A stretch of 58,691 nucleotides of DNA from Chloroflexota bacterium (lineage in GTDB: Bacteria > Chloroflexota > Dehalococcoidia > JACQUD01): the NCBI GenBank assembly GCA_016210485.1, contig JACQUD010000061.1, forward strand, positions 1-58,691, written 5' to 3'. The translations under genes and the position numbers were made by a program. Of this stretch, positions 1 through 14,316 are shown in pieces (the first letter of the stretch is position 1; each line of letters opens with the position of its first letter). Below the pieces are notes generated by a model that worked only from the letters and a program-made list of their open reading frames with translations, made no database searches and had not been told where the DNA came from.

Positions 1-1675
1 CGTTAGCCAGGGCCTCCTGGATGATGCGTATCACCTGGATCTCAACCTCGGCGCTCAGTCTTACAGAGGTGTTCTCAGGGACGATGGTCAAGCTCACGGG
101 GATTCCGCTCAACTGCTGGAACTTGTCCAGATATTCCTGCAACGCGGCGATGAAACCGTCTCGAGGCGAGATAGTGCTGCGCAGCCCCAGGATCGCCTCC
201 CGGGTGTCAGCGTACACGTCCTTGGCCGCCCTCTCGAGTTCGGAAAGCTCGGAGCGTGCCGTAGCTGGATCGCCGATGTCCAGGAACCGCCTTACGGTCA
301 GGGTCTTGGCGTTGACATAGGCCAGGACCTGGGCAACTCCATCATGGATCTCACGGGCGATGCGCCCCCTCTCCTCGGCCACCGCCAGGCTTTGCACCCT
401 CTGGTACAACAGCACGTTCTCCATGGCAACCCCTACTTGATTGCCGACAGCGGTCATCAGTTGCAGCTCCCGGGGGGTAAAGCGCCGGGACTCTCTGGAA
501 GCTAGGTCCATTGCACCCACCACTTTGCCTTTGGCGTGCAAAGGAATACAAACGAACAACCGGAAGCCCGCTTTCTTCACGCCAGCGCGAAGGAAAGAGT
601 CTTCAGTGGAGATATCCGGGCAAATGACAGGCTCCCCTGTCAGCGCCACCTTGCCCGGGAAGCCCTCTCCCTTCTTGAATTTGGTTATCTCACGGAAGGC
701 CTCTGGGAAAAGCCCGGAGTGAGTGAGCAAGACCATCTCCTGGGCCTCATCGTCCCAGAGCCAGGCTTCACCAGCCTCCATGCCGGATAGCTCCATCGCT
801 CTGTCCAGCGCCGCCTTTACGATTTCTTTCAAGTTCAGGCTGCTGTTGAGGGCCGCCGAGAGCTCGTTCAGGGCGGCCAGCTCGCGGGTCCGTCGGGCGC
901 CCTCCTCGAAGAGAGATGCCCGTTCTACCGCTGTGGCCACCTGGTTGGCGATCCCGGAGACCAGGCGGGCCGCGGAGTCATCGAAGGTCCCGGCCCGTCG
1001 AGCGATCAAGGCCATGACACCGACTACCCTTCCCTGGGTAGTCAAGGGCAAGGACATCGTAGAGCCGAAACCTTCCCGGCGTGCTATCTCCTGCAGGCTG
1101 GGGGTACCCTCCTTGAGGACATCCGATAAAACAACGGGCGACCCGGTGGTCACTACCTTGGTGCCTATGGGCGCATCGGCCAGCTTCTGGCGGCGGATGC
1201 GCTCTAGCATTCGCGGTGAAATCCCGGTATACGTTTCCGAGAAGAGCTCTGTCCTGTCCGGGGTGAGCAGGCAGATGGCCCCCGAGTCGGCGTGCACCAG
1301 GCGCATGACCCGGTCCAACGCATCGCGCATGATGACGTTCACGCTGAGGGAAAGCCCCAGAGACTCGGCGATCTCGCTTACGGCCGTTAGCTCCTCGTTT
1401 TGCCGTTTCACCTTGTCCTGGGTCCGCTGCACCAGGTGAAAGATCAGGTTGGCGAAGGTGGAAACCCCAACCAGGAACATGGAATATACTACTAGGAAGC
1501 CGCTGCGGGTGTGCAGGAACCATCCCCAGGAAACGAAATGGCGGACATAGTCCACAGCCAGCAGAAATGCCATGGGCAGCAGGATGGCCAGCCACTTGAG
1601 ATGGCGAAGTTCCATCCGACCCAGGTCAGCGCGGATCCTCTTAATCATATCTTTATGATATAGCTTTCCAGCCAT
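1..1675 (-). CDS. Sensor histidine kinase with 2 TM helices, tandem GAF-like domains and a HisKA_3 H-box. The 3' part (ATPase domain) runs off the window edge.
   Basis: Absent from the ORF track because it has no stop in the window. The reverse-complement reading from the ATG at 1675 gives MAGKLYHKDMIKRIRADL..., then two hydrophobic helices and two GAF-like blocks. It continues with 'ERGRIAREIHDGVAQVLAYV' (NarX/LiaS-type H-box) and '...VIRIIQEALAN' at position ~1. I saw no in-frame stop. Confidence 0.85.
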   Translation of the reverse strand, partial: MAGKLYHKDMIKRIRADLGRMELRHLKWLAILLPMAFLLAVDYVRHFVSWGWFLHTRSGFLVVYSMFLVGVSTFANLIFHLVQRTQDKVKRQNEELTAVSEIAESLGLSLSVNVIMRDALDRVMRLVHADSGAICLLTPDRTELFSETYTGISPRMLERIRRQKLADAPIGTKVVTTGSPVVLSDVLKEGTPSLQEIARREGFGSTMSLPLTTQGRVVGVMALIARRAGTFDDSAARLVSGIANQVATAVERASLFEEGARRTRELAALNELSAALNSSLNLKEIVKAALDRAMELSGMEAGEAWLWDDEAQEMVLLTHSGLFPEAFREITKFKKGEGFPGKVALTGEPVICPDISTEDSFLRAGVKKAGFRLFVCIPLHAKGKVVGAMDLASRESRRFTPRELQLMTAVGNQVGVAMENVLLYQRVQSLAVAEERGRIAREIHDGVAQVLAYVNAKTLTVRRFLDIGDPATARSELSELERAAKDVYADTREAILGLRSTISPRDGFIAALQEYLDKFQQLSGIPVSLTIVPENTSVRLSAEVEIQVIRIIQEALAN

Positions 1676-1725
1676 GTTGCCAATGGGCGTCTTTTCCGCT
1701 CCCTCTGGTAGAGCATCTTCTGACA

Positions 1726-2727
1726 TTATCTGACCTTGGCAACGGGCTCGGTCTCAACCGGCGTGTCGGTCCGGTTGTTCCATTCCGCCATCGAGCCGTC
1801 GTAGTTGGTCACCTTGTCGAAGCCCATGAGTCTCAAGGTGAAATAACCGTGAGCCGCCCGCACCCCGGTCTGGCAATAGACGGCGACAGTATCATTCTGT
1901 GTCAGCCCTTTGCCGACGAACATGGCGGCCAGCTCTCCGGCAGGTTTCCAGACTCCAGCGTCCCCAGGTGTCATGGTATCCTCCCAGTTAACGTTCACGG
2001 CGCCCGGGACATGCCCACCCTTCATGTTGCCCCGAAGATCCTGGCCGACGTATTCGGCCAGGCTGCGGGTGTCCATCACCGTGAAGCCTGGTTTGCCGAG
2101 GTTCCCCAGGAGCGCGTCTCCGGTGATGAGAAGACGGCCCTCGGGGCGGGCGGTGAACTGCGCCGGCGTGACTTCGGGGACCGCCTGGGTGATGGGCCTG
2201 TTTTCTTGCTGCCACTTGGGGAAACCGCCATTCAGAATGGCGACCTTATCCCTGAGGCCGAAGTATTCCAGAGTCCAGAAGACTCGCGCCGCAACCATGC
2301 CCCGGTTCTCGTCATACAGCACCACCTTGACCGTATCGTCACCGATGCCCAACTCAGCGAGGGCCGTCTCTATTTGCGAGACCGGCGGCAGCTCGTTGGG
2401 GAAAGGTTGGTTGACGGAGATCCGGGAGAGTGGCAGGTTGAGGGCGTCCGGCAAATGTCCGGCAGCATATCTGTCGGGGGACCTGACGTCCAGGAGCCGC
2501 ATTCCAGGGGCGTCCAGGTTCGCCTGGAGCCATGAGGTCTCCACCAGGAGATGGGCGTTGGGGTAGGCCGAGACAGGCGCGGGTGTTGCCGTCGGAGTCG
2601 GAGTGGCCTCCCGGGCGCAAGCTGTTAGAACTAGCAGGGCTGCCAGGAGCCACAAGACTATCCACTGGCGCTGCAACCTAATACGGGACACAGGGGCCCT
2701 TTCATCCTTGGAGACATCTTCTAACAT
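1726..2727 (-). CDS. Exported (lipoprotein-type signal) tandem-rhodanese sulfurtransferase (thiosulfate/3-mercaptopyruvate sulfurtransferase family)
   Basis: 333-aa ORF. It has the signal 'LLAALLVLTAC', two rhodanese-like repeats and the C-terminal catalytic loop 'VYCQTGVRAAH'. Confidence 0.85.
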   Translation of the reverse strand: MLEDVSKDERAPVSRIRLQRQWIVLWLLAALLVLTACAREATPTPTATPAPVSAYPNAHLLVETSWLQANLDAPGMRLLDVRSPDRYAAGHLPDALNLPLSRISVNQPFPNELPPVSQIETALAELGIGDDTVKVVLYDENRGMVAARVFWTLEYFGLRDKVAILNGGFPKWQQENRPITQAVPEVTPAQFTARPEGRLLITGDALLGNLGKPGFTVMDTRSLAEYVGQDLRGNMKGGHVPGAVNVNWEDTMTPGDAGVWKPAGELAAMFVGKGLTQNDTVAVYCQTGVRAAHGYFTLRLMGFDKVTNYDGSMAEWNNRTDTPVETEPVAKVR

Positions 2728-2739
2728 CGTGTCGGCGCC

Positions 2740-4755
2740 CTACTTCTCGGATACGACGATGGTGCCCATCATCTCAGGATGAAGCGGACATGTCATGGTG
2801 AAGGTACCGGTATCGGGTGGCACAAAGGAAATAGCCAGCCAGCCACCTGCCCTGGCATGCAGGTGCACATCTATTCCGGTGGGGCATATCCCCGATTCGG
2901 AGTCACACACGTGGTAAGGTAGAAACAAAGCAGAGCGGAGGCTGTTGATGTCCGATGGCATGGGTCCCGTATCTTGTGATGAGAGCCAGAGAATGTCCTG
3001 GGCCGGCATCTGACGGGCATGGAAGTGATGCTCCACACTTCCGGTGTTCTCAAAGACCAGGACCACCCGCTGCCCCTTGACCAGCGACAGGCTGGCTGGC
3101 TCGAAGCCAGAATCGCTGCCCTTGACCTGAATGACGCGAGCATCGGCCAGGGAGACCCGCGTCAGTGTTTGCGAGGGGGTAGACGGAGATATGGGCAGGT
3201 GCCATACCAGAGGCGCTATAACTGCTTCAACGCAGTCATCGTCGGAAGCTACGGACAGCGTCAACACCTGATGTCCCCCTTTTATGAGAGGCGAGCCGCT
3301 CCCATCCTTCGATGGAAACAGGTAGTGCGTTGTGCGGTGATGACCATCGGAGAGCAGTGGCCTCACCCTGACAGGGGCAAACGGGCCTCTGCCGTCCACG
3401 GTAAGAACAAGGTTGAGCGCATCTTCAGGAAGGTCCGAGGCGTGAATCGACTGGGTCACCGTGAAAGAGATGCCGATGCCTCCTGACTCGATCTCTGGAG
3501 ACATGCGCCCGGTTAACTCAAACAGGAGGGGGGCCTCGTATATAGCCTCCAGGTCGCTGTCGCCCGGCCCCTGGCCAGCGCGGGTTAGCAGAGGTATCAA
3601 CTCCCTGACCATGGCAGCGGTCCTGAGGCTTCTTTGGACATCGTCCTCGGTGACTCCAGCTTTCGCTGTGGGAGGAGGCTCCTGTGTCGCGGGCCCCTCG
3701 GAAAAGACGGTCATCTTCCCCCGGATTTGGGGGTGAAGGGGGTCTTGCACGGCGAACGTTCCACTCCCAGCGGCAGAAAAGGACATGGCATCCAGCCCGC
3801 CCCCTTCGGCATAAAGATGGACCTCGTCAGCTCTGGGACAAACGCCGGCGGCCGAGGTGCACATGGTCAACAGAGCAAGGTCGGAATCTACAAAACTGGC
3901 GCTATGATCGTGCTCGTCGCTGCCCTCGGCGCCTAGTGTGTCATGATTCCCCCTGGACAGCCACCTGGGGTCTATCGGTGTCAACCCTATGACTTGATAG
4001 TGACGTTCGTCAGCGGTTTGATTTCGCAGTACTAGACTTATGGTCCATCCTGCAGGGATGAGGACCAACGCTGGCTGGATGCCGCCCTCTGTCATGTCCA
4101 CGTTTATGGTCATGTACCCGGCAGGGGCAAGGGACAGCGTGAGGTCACTCGTTTCAACGGGGACGACTGCGGTGGGCTCGCTTCCAGGCGCAGCGGCCTC
4201 ATCTTGACCAAACGTGCCAGCGCCGCCGGAGCGAGCAACCTGGAGCAGCCCCAGCAGCACTAAAGTGGCGACTACGCTCACCGATGTCATCCCAGCTAGC
4301 CTCAGGCGATGGGCCACGGCCTTTTTGGACACCTGCCTCCAGAACAGCAACACGCTCAGCGCCGCCACGATGCCCAACTCTAACGTCTTGGAGGCCACAT
4401 CTAGGATGCCCAAACCTTCCACGTGGCCAGCGTGCGCACCAAACAGGGGTATGCCCACGGTGCGGGTCACCACGTAGAAGCCAGCCATCCACAGATTGAG
4501 GGAGATGCCGGTGATCAAGTACCAGGGCGCTGCAAAGAGCCGCCTCCTGGGCGCCACGAGCCCCACTGCGTAGAGGCTCTGGAGCCCCGCTACCAAGAGG
4601 AAGAACCACCCATAGCCCCACCACTCTCTGAAATGCTCCGGGGCAAACGCCAGATGGATAGCAGAGGCGCCAAGGGAGAACAGGGCCGCCGAAGCTCTAA
4701 GGGTGAGCTGTTTCGTGACCCTGTAACGTATCTGGCCAACCCTCATCTTCTCCAC
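2740..4755 (-). CDS. Membrane-anchored protein with two paralogous cupredoxin-like domains, one with an intact Cys-His-Met pattern and one degenerate
   Basis: 671 aa, with about 5 N-terminal hydrophobic helices. The C-terminal domain ends 'FTMTCPLHPEMMGTIVV' (Cys-x2-His-x2-Met). Its internal paralog has 'FAVQDPLHPQIRGKMTVF', with Asp in place of Cys. Both carry a C-x6-C pair ('MCTSAAGVCP', 'VCDSESGICP') and His-rich strands ('EHHFHA', 'DVHLHA'). Confidence 0.7.
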   Translation of the reverse strand: MEKMRVGQIRYRVTKQLTLRASAALFSLGASAIHLAFAPEHFREWWGYGWFFLLVAGLQSLYAVGLVAPRRRLFAAPWYLITGISLNLWMAGFYVVTRTVGIPLFGAHAGHVEGLGILDVASKTLELGIVAALSVLLFWRQVSKKAVAHRLRLAGMTSVSVVATLVLLGLLQVARSGGAGTFGQDEAAAPGSEPTAVVPVETSDLTLSLAPAGYMTINVDMTEGGIQPALVLIPAGWTISLVLRNQTADERHYQVIGLTPIDPRWLSRGNHDTLGAEGSDEHDHSASFVDSDLALLTMCTSAAGVCPRADEVHLYAEGGGLDAMSFSAAGSGTFAVQDPLHPQIRGKMTVFSEGPATQEPPPTAKAGVTEDDVQRSLRTAAMVRELIPLLTRAGQGPGDSDLEAIYEAPLLFELTGRMSPEIESGGIGISFTVTQSIHASDLPEDALNLVLTVDGRGPFAPVRVRPLLSDGHHRTTHYLFPSKDGSGSPLIKGGHQVLTLSVASDDDCVEAVIAPLVWHLPISPSTPSQTLTRVSLADARVIQVKGSDSGFEPASLSLVKGQRVVLVFENTGSVEHHFHARQMPAQDILWLSSQDTGPMPSDINSLRSALFLPYHVCDSESGICPTGIDVHLHARAGGWLAISFVPPDTGTFTMTCPLHPEMMGTIVVSEK

Positions 4756-4848
4756 CTTACGGCCGCTGGGTCAGATACTGTAGATAAGCCGCCACCGCTG
4801 TCTCCTTTTGATTTCCCGCCTGTTTCCTAATTGTCAGGCTTTGCCGTT

Positions 4849-4887
4849 GGATGTGCGCCCGAGCCTTTGCAGGCCGGGCGCACATCC
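4849..4887 (-). terminator. Perfect 13-bp GC-rich hairpin between the beta-propeller gene stop and the next gene. It may be a terminator or an mRNA-stabilising stem.
   Basis: The arms ggatgtgcgcccg (4849-4861) and cgggcgcacatcc (4875-4887) flank a 13-nt loop. There is no clean T-tract on the minus strand, so its function as a terminator is uncertain. Confidence 0.4.
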
Positions 4888-4895
4888 TCGTACTG

Positions 4896-6464
4896 TTATT
4901 TCTTCGCGGCTGCGAGCTCCGCGACCTTGGCCCTTACGATGGCCCAGATGGATTCTGACTTGGGACCGCCCTGGTCGAGCAGCACCTCGCCAGTCCAGTC
5001 CGCGTTGTACCGAACGAATCCACCCGAGTGGGTATCCCCGCCATTGGGAGTCGGGATATAGGCCTTGGTCTTGTTCGTGTTCAGGTCCAGGACTATGGTC
5101 TCCCAGCCGTTCTGGTCGCTTATCCAGAGCTCGTTCACCGCCGGGTCCGGGTGTAGGATACCATGGTCTATGCTGGAGGCCGACCCACCCAGGGTGATCG
5201 GCAGTTGGGTAAACGTGCGGTCCTGCCTGAACAGGTTCGTGTCGATGACGCCCACCACGCCACCCTTGTTGTGGCTGCCCTCGCCCTTGCCAATGACGTA
5301 AAGGCGTGTCTCATCCCAGTTCAGGGCCAGCCCATAAGGCCCTGCCACCCCAGCACTGGTGCGAGCGACGACAGTGTTTGTGGTGTTGTCAATCTTGACA
5401 GTCTGGCTGGTCTCGGCATCGTTAACGTAGGTGAACTTGCCGTCCGCAGTGTGGGTGATGCCGATGGGGTGGTGTCCCACGTTCGGGATGACCGTCACCG
5501 CGCCGGTCTCCAGATTGAGCTTGGCTATCCCTGCCGCTGGAAACTCGGAACGCGTGATCTCTGGTGAATCCATGGAGATGTAGAGGAACTTGCCGTCGGG
5601 ACTGGGCGTCGTGAACGGATGGCCCATGGGCTTCACGTCGTCATACGTTATCGCCTTCACAACTCTGTTGTCATCCTTGGGGTCGAGTATGACGTGAGGG
5701 CCGCCGTCGGATCCGAAGCCGAACGTCAGGACCACCCGGTCCTGTCCCTTGGAATCTTTGAACGACTGGATGTGATGGAGATACTGCCTGCGCATCTTCC
5801 CCTGATAGTAGCTCTCCTGCTTGAGGAGCTTGTCTATCTTCAAGGTCCTCATATTGACGATGGCCACCACGGACTCGTCTTTGCCGGCAGCGTCCTTCTG
5901 TCCCCAGCCCACGTACGCCCACTTCCCATCCGGCGAGACCATGACGCCATGAGGATAGCGTATGATCTCCTGTCCCACGTTGAAAAGGGCCGACTTCACG
6001 ACTTCCTTGGTGTTGGCGTCTATGAGGTGGAAGCCGGCGAAGAACGGCGCGCTCTTGTCGTACTTGGGGCTAATGGACAGAGTGCCCTCGCTGCTAATGT
6101 ATATCAGGGGGTGGTCCTTGGCGCTCCAGGCATCGGGCCCGCTGGAGTCGTAAGTAGCCACCAGCTTTAACCCCGCTCGGATGGACTCCGCCGTGTCCCA
6201 TCCCGTGGGCTGGGCCGCCGCTGGGACAGGCTGGAGTTGGCCGGCCTGGACCATGGTAACAGGCGCCAGCCCCTTTATTTCCGCTTGAAGCTGCGAGACC
6301 TCGGACTCCTTCTCGACCACCTTGGCTTCAGCTACGGCCGCCCTGGCCTTGGCATCGTCCAGGTCTTTTTGAGACACGCCTCCACCGCAGGCCACAAGCA
6401 GCCCGACCAGCGCCACTAGGCCAGCGAGGAGGAGAAAGCGTTTTCTCGCTCGTGTTGACGGCAT
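4896..6464 (-). CDS. Lipoprotein with a charged coiled-coil-like linker and a His-rich beta-propeller (YVTN/cd1-like repeats)
   Basis: 522 aa with lipobox 'GLLVACGG'. Blade-like repeats include 'VMVSPDGKWAYVGWG', 'TTPSPDGKFLYISMD', 'GITHTADGKFTYVNDAETSQTVKIDNTTNTVV' and 'LALNWDETRLYVIGKG'. There are many conserved-looking His residues ('YLHHIQ', 'VGHHPIG', 'GDTHSGG'). Confidence 0.7.
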   Translation of the reverse strand: MPSTRARKRFLLLAGLVALVGLLVACGGGVSQKDLDDAKARAAVAEAKVVEKESEVSQLQAEIKGLAPVTMVQAGQLQPVPAAAQPTGWDTAESIRAGLKLVATYDSSGPDAWSAKDHPLIYISSEGTLSISPKYDKSAPFFAGFHLIDANTKEVVKSALFNVGQEIIRYPHGVMVSPDGKWAYVGWGQKDAAGKDESVVAIVNMRTLKIDKLLKQESYYQGKMRRQYLHHIQSFKDSKGQDRVVLTFGFGSDGGPHVILDPKDDNRVVKAITYDDVKPMGHPFTTPSPDGKFLYISMDSPEITRSEFPAAGIAKLNLETGAVTVIPNVGHHPIGITHTADGKFTYVNDAETSQTVKIDNTTNTVVARTSAGVAGPYGLALNWDETRLYVIGKGEGSHNKGGVVGVIDTNLFRQDRTFTQLPITLGGSASSIDHGILHPDPAVNELWISDQNGWETIVLDLNTNKTKAYIPTPNGGDTHSGGFVRYNADWTGEVLLDQGGPKSESIWAIVRAKVAELAAAKK

Positions 6465-6506
6465 TTGATTTGTCTCCTTATCTCAAAGATTCCTCTTTGG
6501 TCCAAG

Positions 6507-6518
6507 TACCCTTGGGTA
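6507..6518. promoter_or_regulatory. Candidate operator, an inverted repeat TACCC-TT-GGGTA that resembles CsoR-type copper-repressor sites
   Basis: tacccttgggta lies about 45 nt upstream of the 6464 start codon, in the divergent spacer between two copper-protein gene sets. Confidence 0.3.
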
Positions 6519-6947
6519 GACCAACGTTCTCTCGTTACATTCCACCTCCCGCCGGTTGCCGGCAGCACCCCAGGGCCAGGGATTCTCCTGCCTAGCGTCG
6601 CCCATATGTGAGACTCATCACGATATACACCGACCATACTCTATGGCAGTCCTGCCGCCAATTGAACACCACAAATGGTAGTCCCGCAGCCAGAAGAGGG
6701 TAGGGTGGCGCTGTGTCCGCCTACCAGAACGGGTGGGCGGAGCTTTGGGAATAGCGAGTAGTGCTGGCACCGCGGAGTCAGCGGGCCACCCGAAGGCAAA
6801 AGGCGTTTGCTGGTGCCCACCCTCTGGGGCCGATAGGCGCTGGAGCACGACTACGAATAATGGTAGGGCATCGCGCCCCGAATCCCACCTCTTATGGTGG
6901 TGATTATCGCCCATCTCATGCCATATACTCGTGCCCAAAGGAGTCAA

Positions 6948-7499
6948 ATGAAGTTACTGCGTGTGCGCTACCTGATACTCGGCCTCGCTGGCGTTTCCGT
7001 CCTTCTGGCAGCGTGCTCGTCCGGCGCGGGAGAAAAAGAACAGCCGCAAGCGACGGCCACGCCTACCCCGACGGCGGTCCGGGCTGTCGCGCCCACGGCA
7101 ACGGCGACCGCCGCGAGGACCCCCACCGCCCCGCCGCTGGCTGCCACTCCTACTCCGACGGCGACGGCAGGCAAGACTCCAACCTCTGTTGTACAGACGC
7201 CGTCATCGTCGGCATCGGGACAGGAGATCCAGGTGCTCATGAGAAACAACGTGTTTCCCGAAGAGATCCACGTGAAAGCGGGGACAAAAGTTGTCTTCGT
7301 GGTCATCAACGAGTCTGATAACGATGAGCACAGCTTCGAGTTTCCAGATTTCGGGCTCACCTATAAGGTGCAAGCCGGTGAGACCATAAGGATCGAGTGG
7401 CAGGCCCCCAACAGCAAGGGTGTGTGGGACGCGGGGTGCTTTCTTACCCAGCCTGGCGGGGTGCACGACGGGATGGAAGGTCTCTTGATCATCGAGTAG
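6948..7499 (+). CDS. Cupredoxin (type-1 copper) lipoprotein with a Thr/Pro/Ala-rich linker
   Basis: ORF track gives 6894..7499. I trimmed it to the ATG at 6948, which is preceded by AAGGAG and gives 'MKLLRVRYLILGLAGVSVLLAAC'. The C-terminus 'EHSFEF...GCFLTQPGGVHDGMEG' fits the His/Cys/His/Met ligand pattern. Confidence 0.75.
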   Translation: MKLLRVRYLILGLAGVSVLLAACSSGAGEKEQPQATATPTPTAVRAVAPTATATAARTPTAPPLAATPTPTATAGKTPTSVVQTPSSSASGQEIQVLMRNNVFPEEIHVKAGTKVVFVVINESDNDEHSFEFPDFGLTYKVQAGETIRIEWQAPNSKGVWDAGCFLTQPGGVHDGMEGLLIIE

Positions 7500-7518
7500 C
7501 AAGATAGGAGGGTGTTGA

Positions 7519-7911
7519 GTGAAGAGCATGAGATCTGTCGTTGGACTGCTGTCGCTTGCAGGACTTCTAGCGTTGGCTGCGTGCGGTTCCGGTGGGGGCG
7601 AGGCCAAGAACCCGCCGCCCCAGGCCCAGGGGATGGCGCAGGAGGTCAAGGTAGATATGGGCGACTATTTCTATGAGCCAAGCCAGCTCACCATCAAGGC
7701 GGGGCAGGTGCATTTCGTCCTGACCAACGTGGGCAAGACGGCCCACCGCTTCGCCATTACCGGAAATGGCGTGAAAGTGAGCAGTCGGAACGTGGGCGCC
7801 GGACGGGAAGGGACCCTGGATGTGGAACTGGCCCCGGGCACATACAAGATGGGGTGCACCCTTGGCGACCACGAGGCGCGGGGCTCGGTTGGACAGATCG
7901 TTGTCCAGTAG
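7519..7911 (+). CDS. Small cupredoxin (plastocyanin/azurin-like) lipoprotein with Ser at the expected axial-Met position
   Basis: 130 aa with lipobox 'LLALAAC'. It contains 'KTAHRFAI' and 'YKMGCTLGDHEARGSVGQIVV' (Cys-x4-His, then Ser where related proteins have Met). An AGGAGGG lies upstream of the GTG start. Confidence 0.8.
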   Translation: MKSMRSVVGLLSLAGLLALAACGSGGGEAKNPPPQAQGMAQEVKVDMGDYFYEPSQLTIKAGQVHFVLTNVGKTAHRFAITGNGVKVSSRNVGAGREGTLDVELAPGTYKMGCTLGDHEARGSVGQIVVQ

Positions 7912-8404
7912 CCGGGTCCCGGCCGCCCCGGCCCGCAGTCAACCCTATAAAGGGCGAGGAACAGGCAAAGCGCAGGCGCCCGGGTCCGGCGACGGATGGG
8001 GGGTCCAGGACATCCGCTGGCCAGCTATCTGGGCAGGGTACGCAGTCGCAACGCTGGTCACTCTGGCCGCCGGATTGCCCTTGCTGGCAGCCAAAGACAG
8101 CACCTGGCTCCTGGCCGCCTCAGGCTCGGCGGGCCTGCTGGCAGGCGGACTGGTTACAGGAAAGCGAGCAGGTCGGCAATTGGCCCTTCTCAACGGGGCT
8201 CTCCTTTGCGTGATGTACAACGTAAGCGTGGCAGGGGCGTTCTTCATCGGGTCCATACTCCAACTGCTTCCTGAACCGCTGCCTGGGCTCCCCCAGGGGG
8301 ACTCCACGTTCTTCTTCGCTTGGCCGCTGGCCCAGTTCGTGTTGGCGGTCGCGGGCGCCGCCGTAGGCAGCCGTATGTCAGTGAAGCGGAAGACGGGAGG
8401 GTAG
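7889..8404 (+). CDS. Small 4-TM membrane protein of unknown function
   Basis: The ORF is open from 7820 (ATG inside the upstream gene). In-frame TTG codons at 7889 and 7901 are more plausible starts, so the start is uncertain. Four hydrophobic segments are present ('WAGYAVATLVTLAAGLPLLAA' ... 'WPLAQFVLAVAGAAVG'). Confidence 0.5.
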   Translation: MDRSLSSSRVPAAPARSQPYKGRGTGKAQAPGSGDGWGVQDIRWPAIWAGYAVATLVTLAAGLPLLAAKDSTWLLAASGSAGLLAGGLVTGKRAGRQLALLNGALLCVMYNVSVAGAFFIGSILQLLPEPLPGLPQGDSTFFFAWPLAQFVLAVAGAAVGSRMSVKRKTGG

Positions 8405-8408
8405 GCAA

Positions 8409-9809
8409 GTGCCCCCAGATGTTCCCCTGATAAACGACCGCCTGGTATTGTGGGTGGTGGCAGAGCTTCATCTGCTGTTTGCGGCCTTCGTCCTGGGGGC
8501 GCCCATCTTCATCGTTATCTGTGAATATCTGGGCCTCAAGACCAGGGATGAACGATACGAGAGGCTGGCCAAGGAGACAATGAAGATTGTGGCCATCGCC
8601 TACAGTCTCACAGCCTTGTTTGGTGGCGCTATGACCTTCGTGCTGGTGGGGAAGTACCAGGAGTTCTCTAACTTCATCTTTCAGCGTTTCTATCCGATCT
8701 TCGGCCTCTATGCTTTGCTGTTGCTCGCGGAGTCCGGCCTTATGTATGTCTACTGGTACACCTGGGACGCCCTGGCAGGGCGAAAGCGCTGGCACATCAG
8801 CATCGGCGTTCTCCTCAATGTCCTGGGTACGCTGGTCATGTTCTTGATGAATGGGGTGGGCAGCTTCATGCTGACGCCTCCCGACTCTCCGGCGACGGCT
8901 ACTGTCTGGCAGTCGCTCAACAACGCCACCTGGACCGGACTGAACCTGCACCGGTTCGTGGCCAACATTTCGTTCGGCGGGTTCATGGTGGCGCTGTTCG
9001 CCGCCCTCATGTTCCTCACCAGCAAGAAAGAAGACGACAGGGCGTTCTACGATTGGATGGGCTACATCGGAAATTTCATCGGCGTAGCGGCCCTGGTAGT
9101 CCTGCCAGTGGCAGGGTATATCTACACCAAGGAGATATTCGCCTATGACGCCACCATAAGCACGCTTCTGATGGCGGACAAGCTGGCCTGGTTCTTCGTG
9201 ATGCAAGGTATCCTGGTGGGCTTCCTGTTCCTCGGAGCAGTGTACTACATGTGGTTGAGCATCCAGCGCATCGAAGGGGGCGCCCGCTTCCGCACCTATA
9301 TCCGCGGCGCCATCTGGGCCTGCCTGGTGGGACTCGCCGTCTGGCTGGTACCGCAGAGCTTCCTGCCATCCCTTACCGCCGAGCCAAGCGGCCCCATATC
9401 GGAGGTGACCATCCCCGAAAAGACGATCTTCCTGGGACTGATGCCGGCCAAGGGTCTGGCGGTGAGCGCAATAGTGGTGGTGACCGCCTTTGTGTATTTT
9501 CTGTATCGGCAGGCCATCGCTACCGGCAAGATGGCGTGGGGGCGCATAGATGTCAAGGCGCAACTTGTCCTTACGTTCCTGCCGGCCGTAGCGGTCTTCA
9601 CTATGGCCTTCATGGGCCCCATCCGTGAGATGGCCAGAGGCCAGTGGCACATCTTCCAGTTCATGCCCGACAAGACTCCTTACTCCTTCATCACGCCGCT
9701 AGGGTACACAGCTATCGTGGCCGGGGCCATAACCATTATTTTCTTTCTGCTGATGGGCGCCATCTTCTGGTTGGGCTTCAAGGTCGGCCACCAGAAGGAA
9801 ACTACGTAG
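8409..9809 (+). CDS. Cytochrome bd oxidase subunit I (CydA)-like polytopic membrane protein, with no CydB partner nearby
   Basis: 466 aa with about 12-14 hydrophobic segments. The N-terminus 'LVLWVVAELHLLFAAFVLGAPIF' resembles CydA helix 1 with its heme-ligand His. The GTG start follows GGGAGGG. This family call is made from memory of CydA sequences and has not been checked with an HMM. Confidence 0.65.
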   Translation: MPPDVPLINDRLVLWVVAELHLLFAAFVLGAPIFIVICEYLGLKTRDERYERLAKETMKIVAIAYSLTALFGGAMTFVLVGKYQEFSNFIFQRFYPIFGLYALLLLAESGLMYVYWYTWDALAGRKRWHISIGVLLNVLGTLVMFLMNGVGSFMLTPPDSPATATVWQSLNNATWTGLNLHRFVANISFGGFMVALFAALMFLTSKKEDDRAFYDWMGYIGNFIGVAALVVLPVAGYIYTKEIFAYDATISTLLMADKLAWFFVMQGILVGFLFLGAVYYMWLSIQRIEGGARFRTYIRGAIWACLVGLAVWLVPQSFLPSLTAEPSGPISEVTIPEKTIFLGLMPAKGLAVSAIVVVTAFVYFLYRQAIATGKMAWGRIDVKAQLVLTFLPAVAVFTMAFMGPIREMARGQWHIFQFMPDKTPYSFITPLGYTAIVAGAITIIFFLLMGAIFWLGFKVGHQKETT

Positions 9810-9822
9810 AGGAGACAGCGGG

Positions 9823-10413
9823 TTGCGTATTATCCTAATAGTAGTTGCGGTTATCGCGGCCATTTGGGTCGCTCCCGTTCTTATCTCTGAGGACTCAGGG
9901 CTTAAGTTCGGTGTCTCCTACCGGGTGCTGTTCACCCTGTTCGTCTTGTTTGCCGGCTTCCTGTTCTATCTGCTACGCGCTCCAGAGTGGAAGCCATTCA
10001 AATCGACGCCAAGGGCGGTGGGAAGCGTGGGGTTGGTCTTCGTCGCTGTCATCGGAGCTATCGTCCTCCTGGCCAACGTGTCTCCCCAGTTTGCCTCTGA
10101 GGGCCAGGCGTCCACGGGAGCATCCTCTGGGGAAAGGGGAAAGGCGGCGTTCTTCGACCCCGGCGTGGGCTGTTTTCTGTGCCACACGGTGGCGACTTCT
10201 GGTGGAACCAGGGGCCCCGATCTCACCCATGTGGCCACAGTGGCAGCCAACCGGCGGCCGGGCCTATCCGTCGAGGACTATTTGAAGGAATCTCTCTTCA
10301 GCCCCGGCGCCTACGTGGTGGCTACGTTCGATAACATCATGCCGCCCTTTGGCGATAGGCTGTCCCCCGAGCAACTCAAGGATATCCTGGCGTACCTGAT
10401 GTCATTGAGATAG
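9823..10413 (+). CDS. Membrane-anchored monoheme c-type cytochrome
   Basis: 196 aa with three N-terminal hydrophobic helices. It has a single 'CFLCH' heme-binding motif and a downstream 'NIMPPFG' (Met-Pro typical of class I cytochrome c sixth ligand). Confidence 0.8.
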   Translation: MRIILIVVAVIAAIWVAPVLISEDSGLKFGVSYRVLFTLFVLFAGFLFYLLRAPEWKPFKSTPRAVGSVGLVFVAVIGAIVLLANVSPQFASEGQASTGASSGERGKAAFFDPGVGCFLCHTVATSGGTRGPDLTHVATVAANRRPGLSVEDYLKESLFSPGAYVVATFDNIMPPFGDRLSPEQLKDILAYLMSLR

Positions 10414-10434
10414 GTCCCCTTTTCGGAAGGCAAG

Positions 10435-11622
10435 ATGTACCGACGCATCCTGGTCCCGGTGGACAATTCCCCTTACTCCGATTTTTCGGTGAGGCTGGCC
10501 GTGGACCTCGGCCGGAAGTTGGGGGCGCACCTAGTGGGCTGCCATGTATATGCCGCCCGCTTGCATGACGACCGGTTCCGGCAGATGGAAACGGGCTTGC
10601 CAGGCCGGTACCAGGAGAAGGACGAGCTCCGGCGGCAACGACAGGTGCACGACTCCCTCATCACCAAAGGGCTGCAGCTCATCTCTGATTCTTACCTCGA
10701 CCCCTTTGAGGCAAGGTGCCGGCAGGCCGGCGTCCCCTGCCAGCGCCGCGTGGTGGAGGGGACTAATTACGTAGAGCTGGCAAAGGAGGTCGAAAACAGC
10801 GGCTGCGACCTCGTCACGATGGGCATCCGGGGCCTGGGGGCGGTGGAAGAAAGCGTCATCGGCAGCGTGTGCGAACGCGTGGTGAGGAGGATCCGGTGCG
10901 CTGTGCTAGTAGCGAAGAACGACTCGCCCCTGGGCGGAAACATCGTGGCGGCCGTGGATGGTAGCTCGCGCTCCCTATCAGGCCTGAGGGCGGCCATAGC
11001 TCTGGGGAAGGTTTTTGGCGCTTCGGTAGAGGTGGTGGCCGTCTTCGACCCGTACTTTCACGGCATGGCATTCCGCAGCCTGGCCGGCGTCCTCTCGGAG
11101 GAGGCGGGTAAGGTATTCCGGTTCCGCGAGCAGGAGCGCCTCCACGACGAGATCATTCACGATGGGCTGCGCAAGTTGTACGAGTCTCACCTGGAGACGG
11201 CCGTGACGTTCGCCCGGTCGCAGGGCCTGGTGGTCACGTCCGCTCTTCTTCCGGGGAAGCCATTCCAGAAGGTGCTCCACTATATTCGGGAGCGGCGGGC
11301 CTCTCTTCTGGTGGTAGGACGGTTCGGTGCTCACTGCACAGGCACTACTGATATAGGTAGCACCGCAGAGAACCTGTTGCGGCTGGCTCCTTGCCACGTG
11401 CTCATCGCAAACGGGGACGAGCAGCCGGCTGTCGCCGACCTGCTTGTGAAGGAGGCTTCTCCCATACCTTGGACCGGGGAAGCTGAGGCGAAGTTGCAAC
11501 ACGTGCCTCCCTTCGCCCGAGGCATGGCCCGCAACGCCATAGACGACTACGCGAGACGCCATGGGCACGCCGAGGTGACGCCGGAAGTGATGGACAAAGC
11601 CCGAGGGGAAATGGGGATGTGA
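10435..11622 (+). CDS. Tandem universal stress protein (USP) domains fused to a C-terminal PCP_red-like (BchB C-terminal) domain
   Basis: 395 aa. 'MYRRILVPVDNSPYS...' and 'NIVAAVDGSSRS...' are the two USP cores. The tail 'IPWTGEAEAKLQHVPPFARGMARNAIDDYARRHGHAEVTPEVMDKAR' matches the W-T-x-E-A-E-x-x-L-x-x-(I/V)-P-F-F-V-R pattern of the ChlB/BchB C-terminus. Confidence 0.8.
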   Translation: MYRRILVPVDNSPYSDFSVRLAVDLGRKLGAHLVGCHVYAARLHDDRFRQMETGLPGRYQEKDELRRQRQVHDSLITKGLQLISDSYLDPFEARCRQAGVPCQRRVVEGTNYVELAKEVENSGCDLVTMGIRGLGAVEESVIGSVCERVVRRIRCAVLVAKNDSPLGGNIVAAVDGSSRSLSGLRAAIALGKVFGASVEVVAVFDPYFHGMAFRSLAGVLSEEAGKVFRFREQERLHDEIIHDGLRKLYESHLETAVTFARSQGLVVTSALLPGKPFQKVLHYIRERRASLLVVGRFGAHCTGTTDIGSTAENLLRLAPCHVLIANGDEQPAVADLLVKEASPIPWTGEAEAKLQHVPPFARGMARNAIDDYARRHGHAEVTPEVMDKARGEMGM

Positions 11623-11705
11623 CGTCGGTCCTGGTCCTGGCAGCGGGCTCGGCCAAGGGACTTTGGACAGGCGCGGCAACGGAATATGTGGAGGAGGGCA
11701 GACCT

Positions 11706-12602
11706 ATGGCAAGGAAGCACAGAGGCATTGCGGCTGATGGCGGCTCTGATATCGTGGCCCAGGTAGTCGCTCAGGGCGACCGCCTGGGGTCGCGGATGGC
11801 GCTCGTTCGGCACAAGATCGCGGTCATGAGCGGGAAGGGAGGGGTGGGCAAGAGCTCCATAACCGCCAACCTGGCGGCAGTCCTGGCCTCCCAGGGATAC
11901 CAGGTGGGAATTCTGGACGCCGATATCAACGGCCCTGCTATAGCCAAGATGCTGGGCGTGCGTGCGCAAAACCTGTCCCTAAGCGAGAACGCCATCCTAC
12001 CGGCCCTCGGGCCCCGCAGCATCAAAGTCATGTCCATGGACCTGCTCTTGCCCGGGGACAAGACGCCGGTGATCTGGGAAGCTCCCACCCAACAGAACTC
12101 GTTCGTCTGGCGAGGGACGATAGAGGCGAGCGCCTTGAGGGAGTTCCTGGCCGACACCGCTTGGGGCGAGTTAGACTTCCTGCTGGTAGACCTACCACCT
12201 GGAACGTACACTTTTCCGACCCTGGAGCAACTGGTGCCTGACCTTGTGGGCATCATTGTTACCATTCCGTCCGAAGTTTCACATCTGGTGGTCAAGCGAT
12301 TCATCAGCCTGGCTCAGGAGTTGGGGACTCTGCTGGCGGGTCTGGTGGAGAACATGGCCGGCTATACTTGCCCGCACTGTGGCAAGGTGGGCGAGCTTTT
12401 CTCTGCCGCAGGCGATGGCGAGAGAATGGTGGCGGAGATGGGCATATCTTACCTGGGCAGCATACCCTTCGACGCCAGGCTTTCGGCATCCGCTGACTGG
12501 GGCATCCCTTTTGCCCTGGAGCATGGCGGGTCTCCTGCGGGACAGGCCCTGGCCCATGTGGCAGCCAAAGTCAAGGAGTTCGTTGGAGAGTCCCGAAGAT
12601 GA
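11706..12602 (+). CDS. Mrp/NBP35 (ApbC) family P-loop ATPase / Fe-S cluster carrier
   Basis: It contains 'KIAVMSGKGGVGKSS' (deviant Walker A) and 'YTCPHCG' (the CxxC of the family). The ATG at 11706 is preceded by GGAGGAGGG. A longer form from the GTG at 11619, overlapping the upstream stop as GTGA, is also possible. Confidence 0.85.
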   Translation: MARKHRGIAADGGSDIVAQVVAQGDRLGSRMALVRHKIAVMSGKGGVGKSSITANLAAVLASQGYQVGILDADINGPAIAKMLGVRAQNLSLSENAILPALGPRSIKVMSMDLLLPGDKTPVIWEAPTQQNSFVWRGTIEASALREFLADTAWGELDFLLVDLPPGTYTFPTLEQLVPDLVGIIVTIPSEVSHLVVKRFISLAQELGTLLAGLVENMAGYTCPHCGKVGELFSAAGDGERMVAEMGISYLGSIPFDARLSASADWGIPFALEHGGSPAGQALAHVAAKVKEFVGESRR

Positions 12603-13039
12603 AGCTTTCTTGCGGCAATTGCGCACAGGCGATGCAACTCGTGAAAGCGACAGATCTGGCCGATGGATCGATGTCCATCATCTTCGGTTGTGCTTCCTGC
12701 GGGAATCGCGTCTCCCTTTTGACCAATCCAGGAGAGACTCAACTGGTCAGAGCCCTCGATGTCCAGATCGGTGGCCGGACTGTGCCCCCAGAACCGATGG
12801 GACTAGTGAGGAGCGCTCTTGCTCGACAGCGTGACGACGCCTTTGTCTCGCAGTCGGACGTTCCCCAGCCCAAGGAAGGGGTTATCTGGACCGAGGACGC
12901 TTTGAGGCGGCTGGAGAATGTGCCCGCTTTCGTTAGGGATATGGCGCGGAAGTCCATCGAGAGATACGCTATGGAAAAGGGCTGTCATCAGATCACCCCT
13001 GAGGTGATGGACCTGGCCAGGAAGGCGACCGGCGGATGA
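12599..13039 (+). CDS. Small zinc-ribbon protein with a C-terminal PCP_red-like domain
   Basis: 146 aa. The motifs 'CGNC...CASCGN' form a 4-Cys ribbon. The tail is 'VIWTEDALRRLENVPAFVRDMARKSIERYAMEKGCHQITPEVMDLAR'. It has ATGA overlaps with both neighbouring genes. Confidence 0.75.
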   Translation: MKLSCGNCAQAMQLVKATDLADGSMSIIFGCASCGNRVSLLTNPGETQLVRALDVQIGGRTVPPEPMGLVRSALARQRDDAFVSQSDVPQPKEGVIWTEDALRRLENVPAFVRDMARKSIERYAMEKGCHQITPEVMDLARKATGG

Positions 13040-14316
13040 GAGATTCCTCGTTGGGGAAGAGCGGGTCGGTTGAGCGCGGACCAGACTCACCGTCGTACCA
13101 TGGATTGCCCGAAGTCCCCACGCGTCCCGAGATCGTCTCCTGGAACGTTACCAGGCGATGCAATCTATCGTGTCCCCATTGCTACCTGAACGCCGGTCTG
13201 CCAGCGGAGCGGGAACTGACAACCCAGGAGGGCCTGCGATTAGTAGACGAGATGGCTGCCATCGGCACCAGGATGCTCATCCTCAGCGGGGGCGAGCCTC
13301 TGTTGAGAAGCGACCTCTTCCAGATCGCGGCGCGAGCCTCCGGGGTGGGGATGTCCGTGGTTCTGGGGAGCAACGGGACCCTGCTCTCTCTGGAGGTAGC
13401 TCGGCATCTCTCGGCCGCCGGGGTGAAGGGGGTTGGGATCAGCCTTGATTCATTAACTCCCGAACGGCATGATGCCTTCCGTGGGGTTGCCGGGGCCTGG
13501 AAGGCAGCGCTGAAAGGATTGGACTCTTGCCGCCAGGCGGGTCTGCCAGTGCTCATTCAAATGTCCTTGTTTGACTGGAATTACAGCGAGATTGACGACA
13601 TGGTCCGTTTCGCGCACGATCGCGGTGCTGCGGGTTTCAATCTCTATTTCCTGGTTTGCTCGGGCAGAGGGGAAGCTCTTACCGACATCGGTCCCGACCA
13701 GTACGAAGAAGCGTTGGAGACCGTGGTGAAAGCCCAGGCTCGAAACCCTCAGATCATGGTGAGAGTCCGCTGCGCTCCCTATGTGACCAGAGTGGCACAT
13801 CAACTAGGTCATCCCTCGTCTGCCGGTTTCGGATGCATGGCTGGGATCAGCTACGGTCGGATAACCCCGGAGGGCGATCTGACTCCCTGCCCTTACTTGC
13901 CTCTATCTGTTGGCAACGTCGGGCAGCAGCCGCTCGCCCATCTGTGGTGGGATTCCAGTCTGCTGGGAGACTTGAGATTGGGTGGACTGAGGGGCCGTTG
14001 TGGCCACTGCCAGTATGGCGACTCTTGCCGAGGATGTCGGGCCAGGGCCTGGTCCGACACCGGTGACTTGCTCCAGGAAGATCCCTGGTGTCGCTACGAT
14101 GGACAAACTGCCCCATCGCCGTTGCTCGGAGGAGTGGTCTGGAGCAGTGAGGCTGAGGAGCGACTGAAGCGGGTGCCCTTTTTCCTGAGGAATGGGATCA
14201 GAGCAGCGGTAGCGGCCTACGCCAAGAGACAGGGGCAGGCCACCATAACTGTCGGCCTGATGGAGGAGGTACGCGCCAAGATGCGGCCAGGAGGCCCCAC
14301 TCAGACAGTTCAGTAG
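13036..14316 (+). CDS. Radical SAM/SPASM enzyme of NirJ/AhbC/AhbD-like type with a C-terminal PCP_red-like domain
   Basis: 426 aa. 'VSWNVTRRCNLSCPHCY' is the CX3CX2C motif, and 'CGHCQYGDSCRGCRARA' is the SPASM/twitch Cys cluster with a NirJ-family-like 'GCRARA'. The tail is 'VVWSSEAEERLKRVPFFLRNGIRAAVAAYAKRQGQATITVGLMEEVR'. Confidence 0.8.
   Translation: MRDSSLGKSGSVERGPDSPSYHGLPEVPTRPEIVSWNVTRRCNLSCPHCYLNAGLPAERELTTQEGLRLVDEMAAIGTRMLILSGGEPLLRSDLFQIAARASGVGMSVVLGSNGTLLSLEVARHLSAAGVKGVGISLDSLTPERHDAFRGVAGAWKAALKGLDSCRQAGLPVLIQMSLFDWNYSEIDDMVRFAHDRGAAGFNLYFLVCSGRGEALTDIGPDQYEEALETVVKAQARNPQIMVRVRCAPYVTRVAHQLGHPSSAGFGCMAGISYGRITPEGDLTPCPYLPLSVGNVGQQPLAHLWWDSSLLGDLRLGGLRGRCGHCQYGDSCRGCRARAWSDTGDLLQEDPWCRYDGQTAPSPLLGGVVWSSEAEERLKRVPFFLRNGIRAAVAAYAKRQGQATITVGLMEEVRAKMRPGGPTQTVQ

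Follow-up and report, generated by a model that had tools for sequence, protein, structure and literature searches.

A histidine-lined beta-propeller as the candidate catalytic subunit of an extracytoplasmic copper redox module in a groundwater Chloroflexota bacterium

Which of the exported proteins encoded side by side at the left end of a Chloroflexota contig is most likely to carry the chemistry of the cluster, and what could that chemistry be? The window analysed here is the whole 58,691-nucleotide (nt) stretch of contig JACQUD010000061.1 (assembly GCA_016210485.1), from a groundwater-type Chloroflexota genome of 1.24 Mb in 76 contigs that is 69% complete; its left 14 kb form a redox island and the remainder carries housekeeping genes. 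Five exported proteins are encoded there in two divergent sets (Table 1): a beta-propeller lipoprotein of 522 amino acids (aa), a 671-aa membrane-anchored protein and a rhodanese lipoprotein on the minus strand, and two cupredoxin lipoproteins on the plus strand, upstream of a cytochrome bd-like protein and a membrane cytochrome c. A sequence-only reading of this DNA had located all five genes correctly and had proposed a copper-dependent oxidation pathway of cupredoxins feeding the bd-like/cytochrome c pair, with the propeller as one item among several. Our results uphold an extracytoplasmic copper-type redox module tied to that pair, as the same set of genes (propeller, both cupredoxins, a protein with four transmembrane helices, bd-like protein and cytochrome c) recurs in relatives, and they move its centre: the comparative data put the propeller, and not the cupredoxins, in the middle. 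We propose, with about even confidence and chiefly from sequence comparison, that the interval encodes one extracytoplasmic copper redox system in which the propeller would bind copper and is the most likely catalytic subunit.

Behind its lipobox cysteine (Cys26, the only cysteine of the protein) the propeller protein continues with a long helix (residues 32-64) and a beta-propeller over about residues 99-500, modelled with a predicted local distance difference test score (pLDDT) of 90.8 and a predicted template modelling score (pTM) of 0.85, and with a C-terminal helix after the last blade. The first helix links lipid anchor and propeller over 33 residues (pLDDT 64-90) and resembles a stalk keeping the propeller off the membrane; the equivalent helix is much longer and rich in Ala and Gln in some relatives. 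The protein had been described as a His-rich propeller. The fold is borne out by the model, whereas the composition is not His-rich (14 His in 522 residues, 2.7%); instead, nine of the His recur without exception in all 26 close relatives compared (H118, H172, H230, H231, H282, H398, H434, H438 and H479). The sequence falls into eight repeats, and in the model a His or Tyr stands at the entry of the first strand of each (DH118P, PH172G, LH230H231I, GH282P, H331H332P, PY377G, DH434G and TH479S in repeats 1 to 8). Across 48 family members, down to 26% identity, the conserved positions are H172 (47 sequences), H230 (47), H231 (46), H434 (48), H479 (48) and Y377 (45).

The family to which this propeller belongs is large and goes under the source names hypothetical, YVTN or YncE. 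No Pfam family matched the propeller, and its NCBIfam matches were weak and at the level of single repeats. Relatives numbered 605 proteins at E <= 1e-5 among 8000 candidates scored, and 2135 representatives at E <= 1e-3, with 49 at E <= 1e-30. They come from Chloroflexota (including SAR202 and Limnocylindria), Acidobacteriota, Trueperaceae, Acidimicrobiia and marine Alphaproteobacteria; the source genome holds one copy, and its nearest homologous proteins carry the source names Chloroflexi or Dehalococcoidales. Among the 120 best matches listed, many relatives of about 580-600 aa bear a C-terminal cytochrome c domain, which argues for redox chemistry, and plastocyanin or halocyanin models match two of the 48 family members. 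Neither a name for this family nor a study of it appears in the portions of the literature available to us, in which L-NosZ is covered via citing papers (PMC13477213, PMC13122619, PMC13502197, bioRxiv 10.1101/2024.06.05.597523).

What travels with the propeller was read from 77 related loci (L numbers below; G numbers denote genomes) in named public genomes, found with a closer propeller alignment and with flanks of at most 8 kb that are often cut by contig ends. The greedy caller of open reading frames (ORFs) adds false ORFs on high-GC DNA, and counts that depend on gene distance are lower bounds. The recurrent neighbours are the modules of which the 671-aa protein and its relatives are built: its type of cupredoxin-like domain (21 loci by strict and 28 by loose assignment), its central beta-sandwich, or mid, domain (24 loci) and the membrane domain DsbD_TM (27 loci), with any one of the three at 37 loci; an accessory of this kind lies within two genes of at least 22 of 64 propeller genes. 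Sigma-54-type regulators occur at 24 loci, thioredoxin-like proteins, cysteine desulfurase and DUF6152 at seven each, SCO1 and a 4Fe-4S protein of the twin-arginine translocation (Tat) type at six each, SufU-like proteins at five, CopC/D-like proteins at four and NrfD at three. Scanning 116 neighbours at 13 loci with Pfam bore these names out and also brought to light cytochromes c and a further, divergent propeller. The electron partners differ by lineage, being a fused cytochrome c, a Fer4/NrfD pair, or cupredoxins with a bd-like oxidase. Because conservation extends to the propeller and a modular accessory with traits of a copper chaperone, and the electron partners vary as interchangeable wiring, we read the propeller as the catalytic subunit.

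On this proposal the histidines at the strand entries would face the central hub and ligate a multinuclear copper site, in the manner of the clusters of nitrous oxide (N2O) reductase, NosZ, and thiocyanate dehydrogenase, and a small inorganic substrate would be turned over there. Electrons would most likely leave the propeller, in this organism, for the bd-like oxidase, by way of the two type-1 lipoprotein cupredoxins and the membrane cytochrome c. The plus-strand genes at 7994-10413, which fall beyond the interval of the sequence-only reading yet are conserved along with it, are the probable electron sink or source of the module. We infer flow from substrate to oxidase because in one relative these genes share an operon with an oxidase-like protein and because the cupredoxins look high-potential. 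The link between propeller and bd-like oxidase is kept at three relatives' loci (L012, L013 and L064); at L013 the propeller gene comes after those for the bd-like protein and cytochrome c, all on one strand. The 671-aa protein would stand off the main electron path, its cupredoxin-like and His-bearing beta-sandwich domains handling copper for the assembly or upkeep of the propeller site; elsewhere a DsbD-type thiol relay would join these accessory domains.

His-lined copper propellers are associated with rare chemistry, such as N2O reduction and thiocyanate oxidation, and CuZ, the cluster of NosZ, has seven His ligands. The propeller resembles NosZ and L-NosZ in being extracytoplasmic, in apparently placing His at the inner-strand entry of successive blades and in carrying an HH pair within a hydrophobic strand; its PHGV..SPDG parallels NosZ PHGVDVTP.GDY, the hub-His motifs of NosZ and L-NosZ being PHGVDVTP, THHPAL and GVHHI. 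When the profile of 48 propeller-family sequences was compared by hhalign with four true L-NosZ sequences, the probability was 98.8% in global (E 7.7e-16) and 97.6% in local mode, with LHHI of the propeller on VHHI of L-NosZ; against seven NosZ sequences it was 49% (E 1.7e-4), with H434 and H479 on the histidines of NosZ THH and SxHGG. The L-NosZ model matches 34 of the 48 family members, at best with E 2.9e-19 and always under its cut-off, whereas true L-NosZ sequences score 701-779 bits. L-NosZ and the propeller family share homology of the lactonase/YVTN propeller type, a likeness that is common to metal-free YVTN proteins. In fold the propeller superposes on NosZ (2iwf) with Z 24.4 and a root-mean-square deviation (rmsd) of 3.2 over 320 residues.

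These likenesses raise the possibility that the propeller is a terminal reductase, namely a stripped-down NosZ relative that lacks the fused CuA domain, is fed by free cupredoxins or by a cytochrome c fused to it, with the bd-like protein and cytochrome c delivering electrons, and reduces N2O or an oxidant like it. The remote homology, with the HH pair and two further His aligned, is joined by the 201-aa cupredoxin, which is related to the C-terminal domain of NosZ (E 5.3e-8 to the NCBIfam CuA region of Sec-type NosZ) and has the H-x2-M spacing seen in CuA loops, and by a taxonomic range which we take to overlap that of non-denitrifying N2O reducers. Electron-input modules of the reductase kind also occur in the family. 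At L073:3480-13767, from a Chloroflexota genome, the propeller gene lies between two radical S-adenosylmethionine (SAM) genes; a mid-DsbD_TM gene lies upstream of it, and genes for a Tat 4Fe-4S protein, NrfD and a dihaem cytochrome c come after it. The locus is a quinol-linked version of the propeller system, with no bd-like gene within 2741-13767. The arrangement of a Tat 4Fe-4S protein with NrfD is that of quinol dehydrogenases which feed reductases, and with such neighbours in the family the word oxidation, used by the sequence-only reading, is not supported.

We nevertheless consider a reductase unlikely. The propeller scores 21.1 bits against a cut-off of 625 with the NosZ model (TIGR04246), which matched residues 447-490 alone, and 19.7 bits against a cut-off of 700 with the L-NosZ model (NF052460). 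CxxxCxxxHxxM is kept in all four true L-NosZ sequences, whereas the propeller protein has no C-x3-C-x3-H-x2-M CuA domain and no two-Cys CuA site was found anywhere in the cluster. The curated scores and the lack of CuA together rule out membership of NosZ or L-NosZ. Five presumed hub His are conserved family-wide against the seven of CuZ, eight sequence repeats stand against seven blades, and the accessory genes are cupredoxin-like, mid and DsbD_TM modules, with no nos accessory gene noticed among the window genes scanned with Pfam. No NosZ match (TIGR04246 / TIGR04244) above cut-off was obtained in the source genome (69% complete); true L-NosZ over cut-off occurred in none of 301 sampled Chloroflexota genomes (the sample including the unpublished G504 and G335) and in none of five genomes that hold distant propeller-family members, compared with five of 301 genomes of another phylum. 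Up to four propeller-family loci in one assembly would be unusual for an N2O reductase, and the co-operonic oxidase-like protein fits electron disposal better. The four loci in question (L072, L082, L097 and L102) lie in records of one Rhodobacteraceae assembly, in unrelated neighbourhoods that include ribosomal genes, PhoX, and a DsbD_TM gene with a second propeller; their number argues against a single dedicated respiratory role.

Thiocyanate dehydrogenase is described as a stand-alone periplasmic copper propeller, lined with His and without CuA, that passes its electrons to cytochrome c (PMC9456337). The propeller of the window is likewise stand-alone and without CuA, and its rhodanese neighbour suggests a sulfur link as in the trinuclear-copper enzyme of Thioalkalivibrio. 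The profile matches (6sji, 6uwe, 5oex and 5f75, E 8e-4 to 1.2e-3) are weak and limited to 69 profile columns, and the rhodanese is not conserved with the propeller family. Foldseek returned generic propellers only, among them cd1 nitrite reductase, NirF and NirN. A nearby NirJ2/AhbD-like radical-SAM gene raised the idea of a haem-d1-type cofactor, which we set aside, judging the number of His excessive for a haem pocket.

Several observations weigh against a copper-bearing catalytic propeller of the kind we propose. Its strongest sequence relatives are metal-free YVTN/lactonase propellers (1l0q, E 3.4e-45), so most of its likeness to L-NosZ may lie in the repeats as such. In fold, too, the best matches are YVTN/lactonase propellers, and these are seven-bladed (Z 28-32; 1l0q Z 32.3, rmsd 2.4 over 298 residues); with eight sequence repeats the blade count may be seven or eight. 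The placing of the His in the hub, which we infer, follows from repeat position and from alignment to NosZ-type motifs rather than from coordinates. A His-lined propeller can equally be a metallochaperone, and one of the 48 family members weakly matches AztD. No DsbD_TM gene was matched in the source genome (69% complete), and the cupredoxin-like accessory is missing from four propeller-bearing genomes (G016, G020, G022 and G027). The bd-like/cupredoxin set accompanies the propeller at only three of the 77 loci (L062, L064 and L096) besides the window, and the occurrence of the Tat-type 4Fe-4S protein at six loci and of NrfD at three makes the direction of electron flow less certain. A predicted complex between residues 80-522 of the propeller protein and the first cupredoxin domain of the 671-aa protein scored 0.00 against a mark of 0.32 in a run without controls, and speaks neither for nor against an interaction.

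The two small cupredoxins, which on our proposal would carry electrons away from the propeller, have recognisable type-1 sites of unusual make-up. In the 130-aa protein, H76, C113-x4-H118 and Ser123 make up the site, GCTLGDHEARGSVG being residues 112-125; Pfam Cupredoxin_1 scores 44.5 bits and Copper-bind (PF00127) 24.6 bits against a cut-off of 21.2. A profile of 27 members of its family (27 of 55 matches were aligned) aligns end to end with solved plastocyanins: H76, C113 and H118 fall on the ligand His, Cys and His, and the axial Met is matched by Ser123 (rGSvG in the family, aGMvG in plastocyanin). The three ligands are nearly invariant among the 27 sequences, while the axial position is Ser in 19 and Ala in two of the 21 close homologs that have the loop, and Met in five distant homologs. 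The Ser that the sequence-only reading had noted in place of Met is thus confirmed, and, as judged from these alignments, the absence of an axial Met is a genuine trait, shared by the close homologs. Axial-ligand changes tune the potentials of blue-copper proteins. Since Ser swaps with Ala, the axial position is probably non-coordinating, and for that reason the potential of the protein should rise.

The 201-aa cupredoxin combines a long linker rich in Pro, Thr and Ala with a full type-1 ligand set (H146, C182, H190 and M193, spaced C-x7-H-x2-M) that is kept in the window and in three relatives, and scores 35.9 bits with Pfam Cupredoxin_1. Having a single Cys, it offers a CuA-like frame for one mononuclear site. 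Among solved proteins its closest relative is AcoP, from the iron-oxidation operon of Acidithiobacillus (E 0.001), with which it has the GCFL...GM loop in common. In the structural comparison AcoP also ranks first for domain 1 of the 671-aa protein, and the 130-aa protein has a C-x4-H spacing like that of rusticyanin and matches rusticyanin profiles weakly (E 0.003-0.007). Together with the membrane tethering of all these proteins and their position beside a terminal-oxidase-like operon, this brings to mind the iron-oxidation chain of Acidithiobacillus ferrooxidans, and the rusticyanin-like chain suggested from sequence has gained slightly by the closeness of the 201-aa protein to AcoP. The differences are that the oxidase is bd-like here and not of the aa3 type, that the axial ligand of the 130-aa protein is Ser or Ala and not Met, that the loop His of the 201-aa protein comes two residues later than in AcoP, and that no Cyc2-like outer-membrane cytochrome was seen in the window.

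The cupredoxins could themselves form an oxidation pathway of this rusticyanin-like kind, for Fe(II), Cu(I) or a sulfur compound delivered by the rhodanese, leaving the propeller as a scaffold or binding protein. Besides the AcoP-like 201-aa protein, this explanation can draw on the similarity of the 130-aa protein to EfeO-type N-terminal domains (E 6.4e-12; 7wgu, E 1.1e-9), on the structural nearness of domain 2 of the 671-aa protein to FtrB (Z 11.5), on the long linkers that could let lipoproteins reach external substrates, and on the presence of a rhodanese in the same operon. Against it, the exact 671-aa architecture is rare (four proteins), the site that such a chain needs varies within that type of domain (Cys in eight and Asp in six of 14 domains, one of which also lacks the His), and the conserved element, with invariant residues and fused to cytochrome c elsewhere, is the propeller. 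The rhodanese, moreover, lies beside the propeller at only two of 78 loci, the window and L064 (61% identity), which likewise undercuts the sulfur substrate that the sequence-only reading had offered on its account. We hold such a chain to be improbable.

The rhodanese noted by the sequence-only reading is well defined. Pfam PF00581 matches it in two stretches (129.8 bits) and the catalytic-loop Cys lies in the second domain (YCQTGVRA, residues 284-291), whereas the score against the 3-mercaptopyruvate sulfurtransferase equivalog, 137.8, is below the cut-off of 250. Only 12 nt separate its gene from that of the 671-aa protein, and 1 nt is shared with the start of the kinase gene. From its distribution it would be a lineage-specific addition.

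The 671-aa protein comprises an N-terminal membrane domain of four helices and two cupredoxin domains on either side of the mid domain (Table 1). TCPLHPEMM, at residues 655-663, belongs to domain 2, and QDPLHPQIRGKM, at residues 337-348, to domain 1, where Asp stands for Cys. Both motifs are in place, and both domains have a cupredoxin fold in the AlphaFold model of residues 190-671 (25-row alignment; mean pLDDT 77.9, pTM 0.46), which consists of three beta-sandwich domains and disordered linkers. The C-x6-C pairs that had been noted in both domains are present (299/306 and 617/624); of the HxH-like strands ascribed to both, domain 2 has HHFH and VHLH, while domain 1 has RHYQ and VHLY and does not conform. 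Pfam Cupredoxin_1 (PF13473) scores 51.9 bits with domain 2 and, for domain 1 alone, 19.8 bits (E 8e-4), under the cut-off. Domain 2 superposes on 4hcf (Z 13.1, rmsd 1.0 over 86 residues), FtrB and nitrosocyanin (Z 11.0, 32% identity); phmmer places Cys656 and His659 on the Cys and His of 4hcf and of nitrosocyanin (FTIWCQLHP), and the first His of EHHF on the N-terminal ligand position. At the aligned positions domain 2 has H576, C656, H659 and M662; in domain 1 the Cys is replaced by Asp338 and the Met by Ile. The nearest structures to domain 1 are AcoP (Z 11.4), the copper chaperone CupA (Z 10.9), the EfeO N-domain (Z 10.5) and the CuA domain of NosZ (Z 10.0).

Aligned to solved structures, then, the Cys, His and Met residues singled out by the sequence-only reading do fall at cupredoxin metal sites; their conservation is divided. 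In 14 domains of the 671-aa type the N-terminal His is present in 14, the His that follows the Cys position in 13, the His of the VH motif in 13 and the Cys pair in ten, whereas the Cys position itself is Cys in eight and Asp in six. Compared with other Cupredoxin_1-type proteins (4hcf, nitrosocyanin, FtrB, the EfeO N-domain, CopI and CupA), these domains differ in this exchange of the ligand Cys, in their Cys pair, in an inserted His-rich loop that is variable and disordered in the model, in their obligate proximity to the propeller, and, in the 671-aa protein, in their tandem arrangement around a His-bearing beta-sandwich.

The wider distribution of these domains indicates an assembly of movable parts. 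A word-based search found the exact architecture in only four proteins, three of which are lipoproteins without the four-helix anchor; wider relatives were obtained by genome searches with the domain alignment and script-built hidden Markov models. A single-domain form of the cupredoxin-like domain adjoins the propeller gene in five further genomes, in two genomes (G020 and G022) a DsbD-type membrane domain is joined to two mid domains headed by the same four-helix anchor, and in Acidobacteria cupredoxin-like, mid and DsbD_TM domains are fused in one protein. Neither the four-helix domain nor the mid domain has a Pfam match at E <= 5; the mid domain has no named family in Atlas, where it is structurally linked to a 935-member cluster of proteins of about 474 aa, 86% of them with DsbD_TM. 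The 671-aa protein looks like a modular accessory that travels with the propeller. Its four-helix domain has the conserved His/Trp motifs AIHLAFAPEHF..WWGYGWFF and GAHAGHVE and, going by these, may bind a metal or cofactor. A mid-type domain with an SPHHR motif is fused to a DsbD-type membrane domain with WPC and GCMTCFG at four loci (L011:7598-9991, L012:6424-8700, L077:6519-8255 and L100:9284-11557); the second Cys motif, GCMTCFG, is one which we take to be unlike that of CcdA, and this fusion family could be a thiol relay or a copper transporter. The related loci, in fusing or adjoining the accessory to DsbD_TM, with thioredoxin-like proteins and SCO1 nearby, resemble the DsbD/CcdA-TlpA-Sco route of copper insertion into CuA, whereas the 671-aa protein of the window has a different, four-helix anchor and no DsbD_TM.

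Such an accessory also lends itself to a purely homeostatic interpretation, in which the left-hand genes are a copper-homeostasis or storage set and the propeller and the 671-aa protein traffic copper as CopI, CupA and AztD do, serving the metallation of the adjacent oxidase operon. Domain 2 and the 130-aa protein both match CopI weakly (E 1.3e-3 and 2.4e-8, respectively), the structural nearness of CupA to domain 1 and the AztD match of one family member point the same way, and SCO1, CopC/D-like and MbnB-like genes occur at some loci. Yet the cytochrome c fusions and the pairing with Fer4/NrfD indicate catalysis and not storage. The regulators, too, are a GAF sensor kinase and, at 24 of the 77 loci, the sigma-54 type; neither GAF-domain sensor kinases nor sigma-54-type regulators are typical copper regulators. 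We regard this explanation as quite improbable. One acidobacterial propeller locus (L076) has beside it, at 4481-5254 and 5622-6994, a modifying enzyme for ribosomally synthesised and post-translationally modified peptides of the MbnB/TglH/ChrH type and an extracytoplasmic function (ECF) sigma/NrsF pair, neighbours that may hint at a link with a copper-binding peptide.

The layout of the window is compact. The four minus-strand genes follow one another at successive gaps of 140, 12 and -1 nt; homologs of the kinase that ends the set occur at five relatives' loci, and GAF/PAS-type kinases at 18 of the 77. Read from the sequence, four of the five exported proteins have lipoboxes (LLVAC, LLAAC, LALAAC and LVLTAC) and the 671-aa protein has its hydrophobic helices instead. 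The start of the 201-aa cupredoxin gene at 6948 sits behind an AAAGGAG ribosome site; a simple scan of the divergent intergenic region found neither a sigma-70-like promoter nor a terminator. The ORF of the small membrane protein, 7820-8404 on the plus strand, begins within the 130-aa cupredoxin gene, and since relatives align only from residue 59 its real start is probably near 7994. A cofactor cassette lies downstream of the genes for the small membrane protein, the bd-like protein and the cytochrome c, on the plus strand.

Table 1. Genes, domains and intergenic region at the left end of the window (positions in nt of the window)
Feature	Position	Strand	Basis or remark
Sensor histidine kinase, GAF-GAF-HisKA_3	2-1726	-	Pfam; last of minus-strand set, truncated by window edge
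333-aa lipoprotein, two rhodanese domains	1726-2727	-	ORF, Pfam
671-aa membrane-anchored protein	2740-4755	-	ORF; four-part accessory
671-aa protein, cupredoxin domain 2, C656-x2-H659-x2-M662	2743-3177	-	
671-aa protein, His-bearing beta-sandwich (mid) domain	3178-3699	-	
671-aa protein, cupredoxin domain 1, Asp338 at Cys position	3700-4170	-	
671-aa protein, four-helix N-terminal membrane domain	4276-4755	-	residues 1-160
Propeller, 522-aa lipoprotein	4896-6464	-	ORF; candidate catalytic subunit
Divergent intergenic region between the two gene sets	6465-6947	.	
Lipoprotein cupredoxin, 201-aa ORF	6894-7499, probable start 6948	+	Pfam Cupredoxin_1
130-aa lipoprotein cupredoxin	7519-7911	+	Pfam Cupredoxin_1, Copper-bind
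Small membrane protein	about 7994-8404	+	ORF
Cytochrome bd-like subunit I homolog	8409-9809	+	ORF, Pfam
Membrane cytochrome c	9823-10413	+	ORF, Pfam

Carried further, the proposal of a catalytic propeller would make the family a new class of copper, possibly copper-sulfide, cluster enzymes, adding a fourth lineage to those of NosZ I/II, L-NosZ and thiocyanate dehydrogenase. In such a class the electron-entry domain would have been split off into free cupredoxins or exchanged for cytochrome c, and maturation would follow a line of its own, with a Cys/Asp-variable chaperone, a His-bearing immunoglobulin-like domain and a DsbD-type relay, the sulfur coming from the rhodanese here and from SufS/SufU-like proteins elsewhere. 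We offer this extension as speculative and on present evidence doubtful. Each new lineage of His-lined copper propellers, most recently L-NosZ, has shifted estimates of who runs these reactions, and N2O reduction is, to our knowledge, the only known biological sink for a major greenhouse gas. For bioinorganic chemistry the locus offers a natural blue-copper family of about 50 homologs in which, among the close ones, Ser or Ala replaces the axial Met, and a family of cupredoxin domains that switches its ligand Cys to Asp. If this extension is true, the propeller enzyme would act in the nitrogen or sulfur cycle of abundant groundwater, soil and marine bacteria, among them SAR202, Vicinamibacterales and Trueperaceae.

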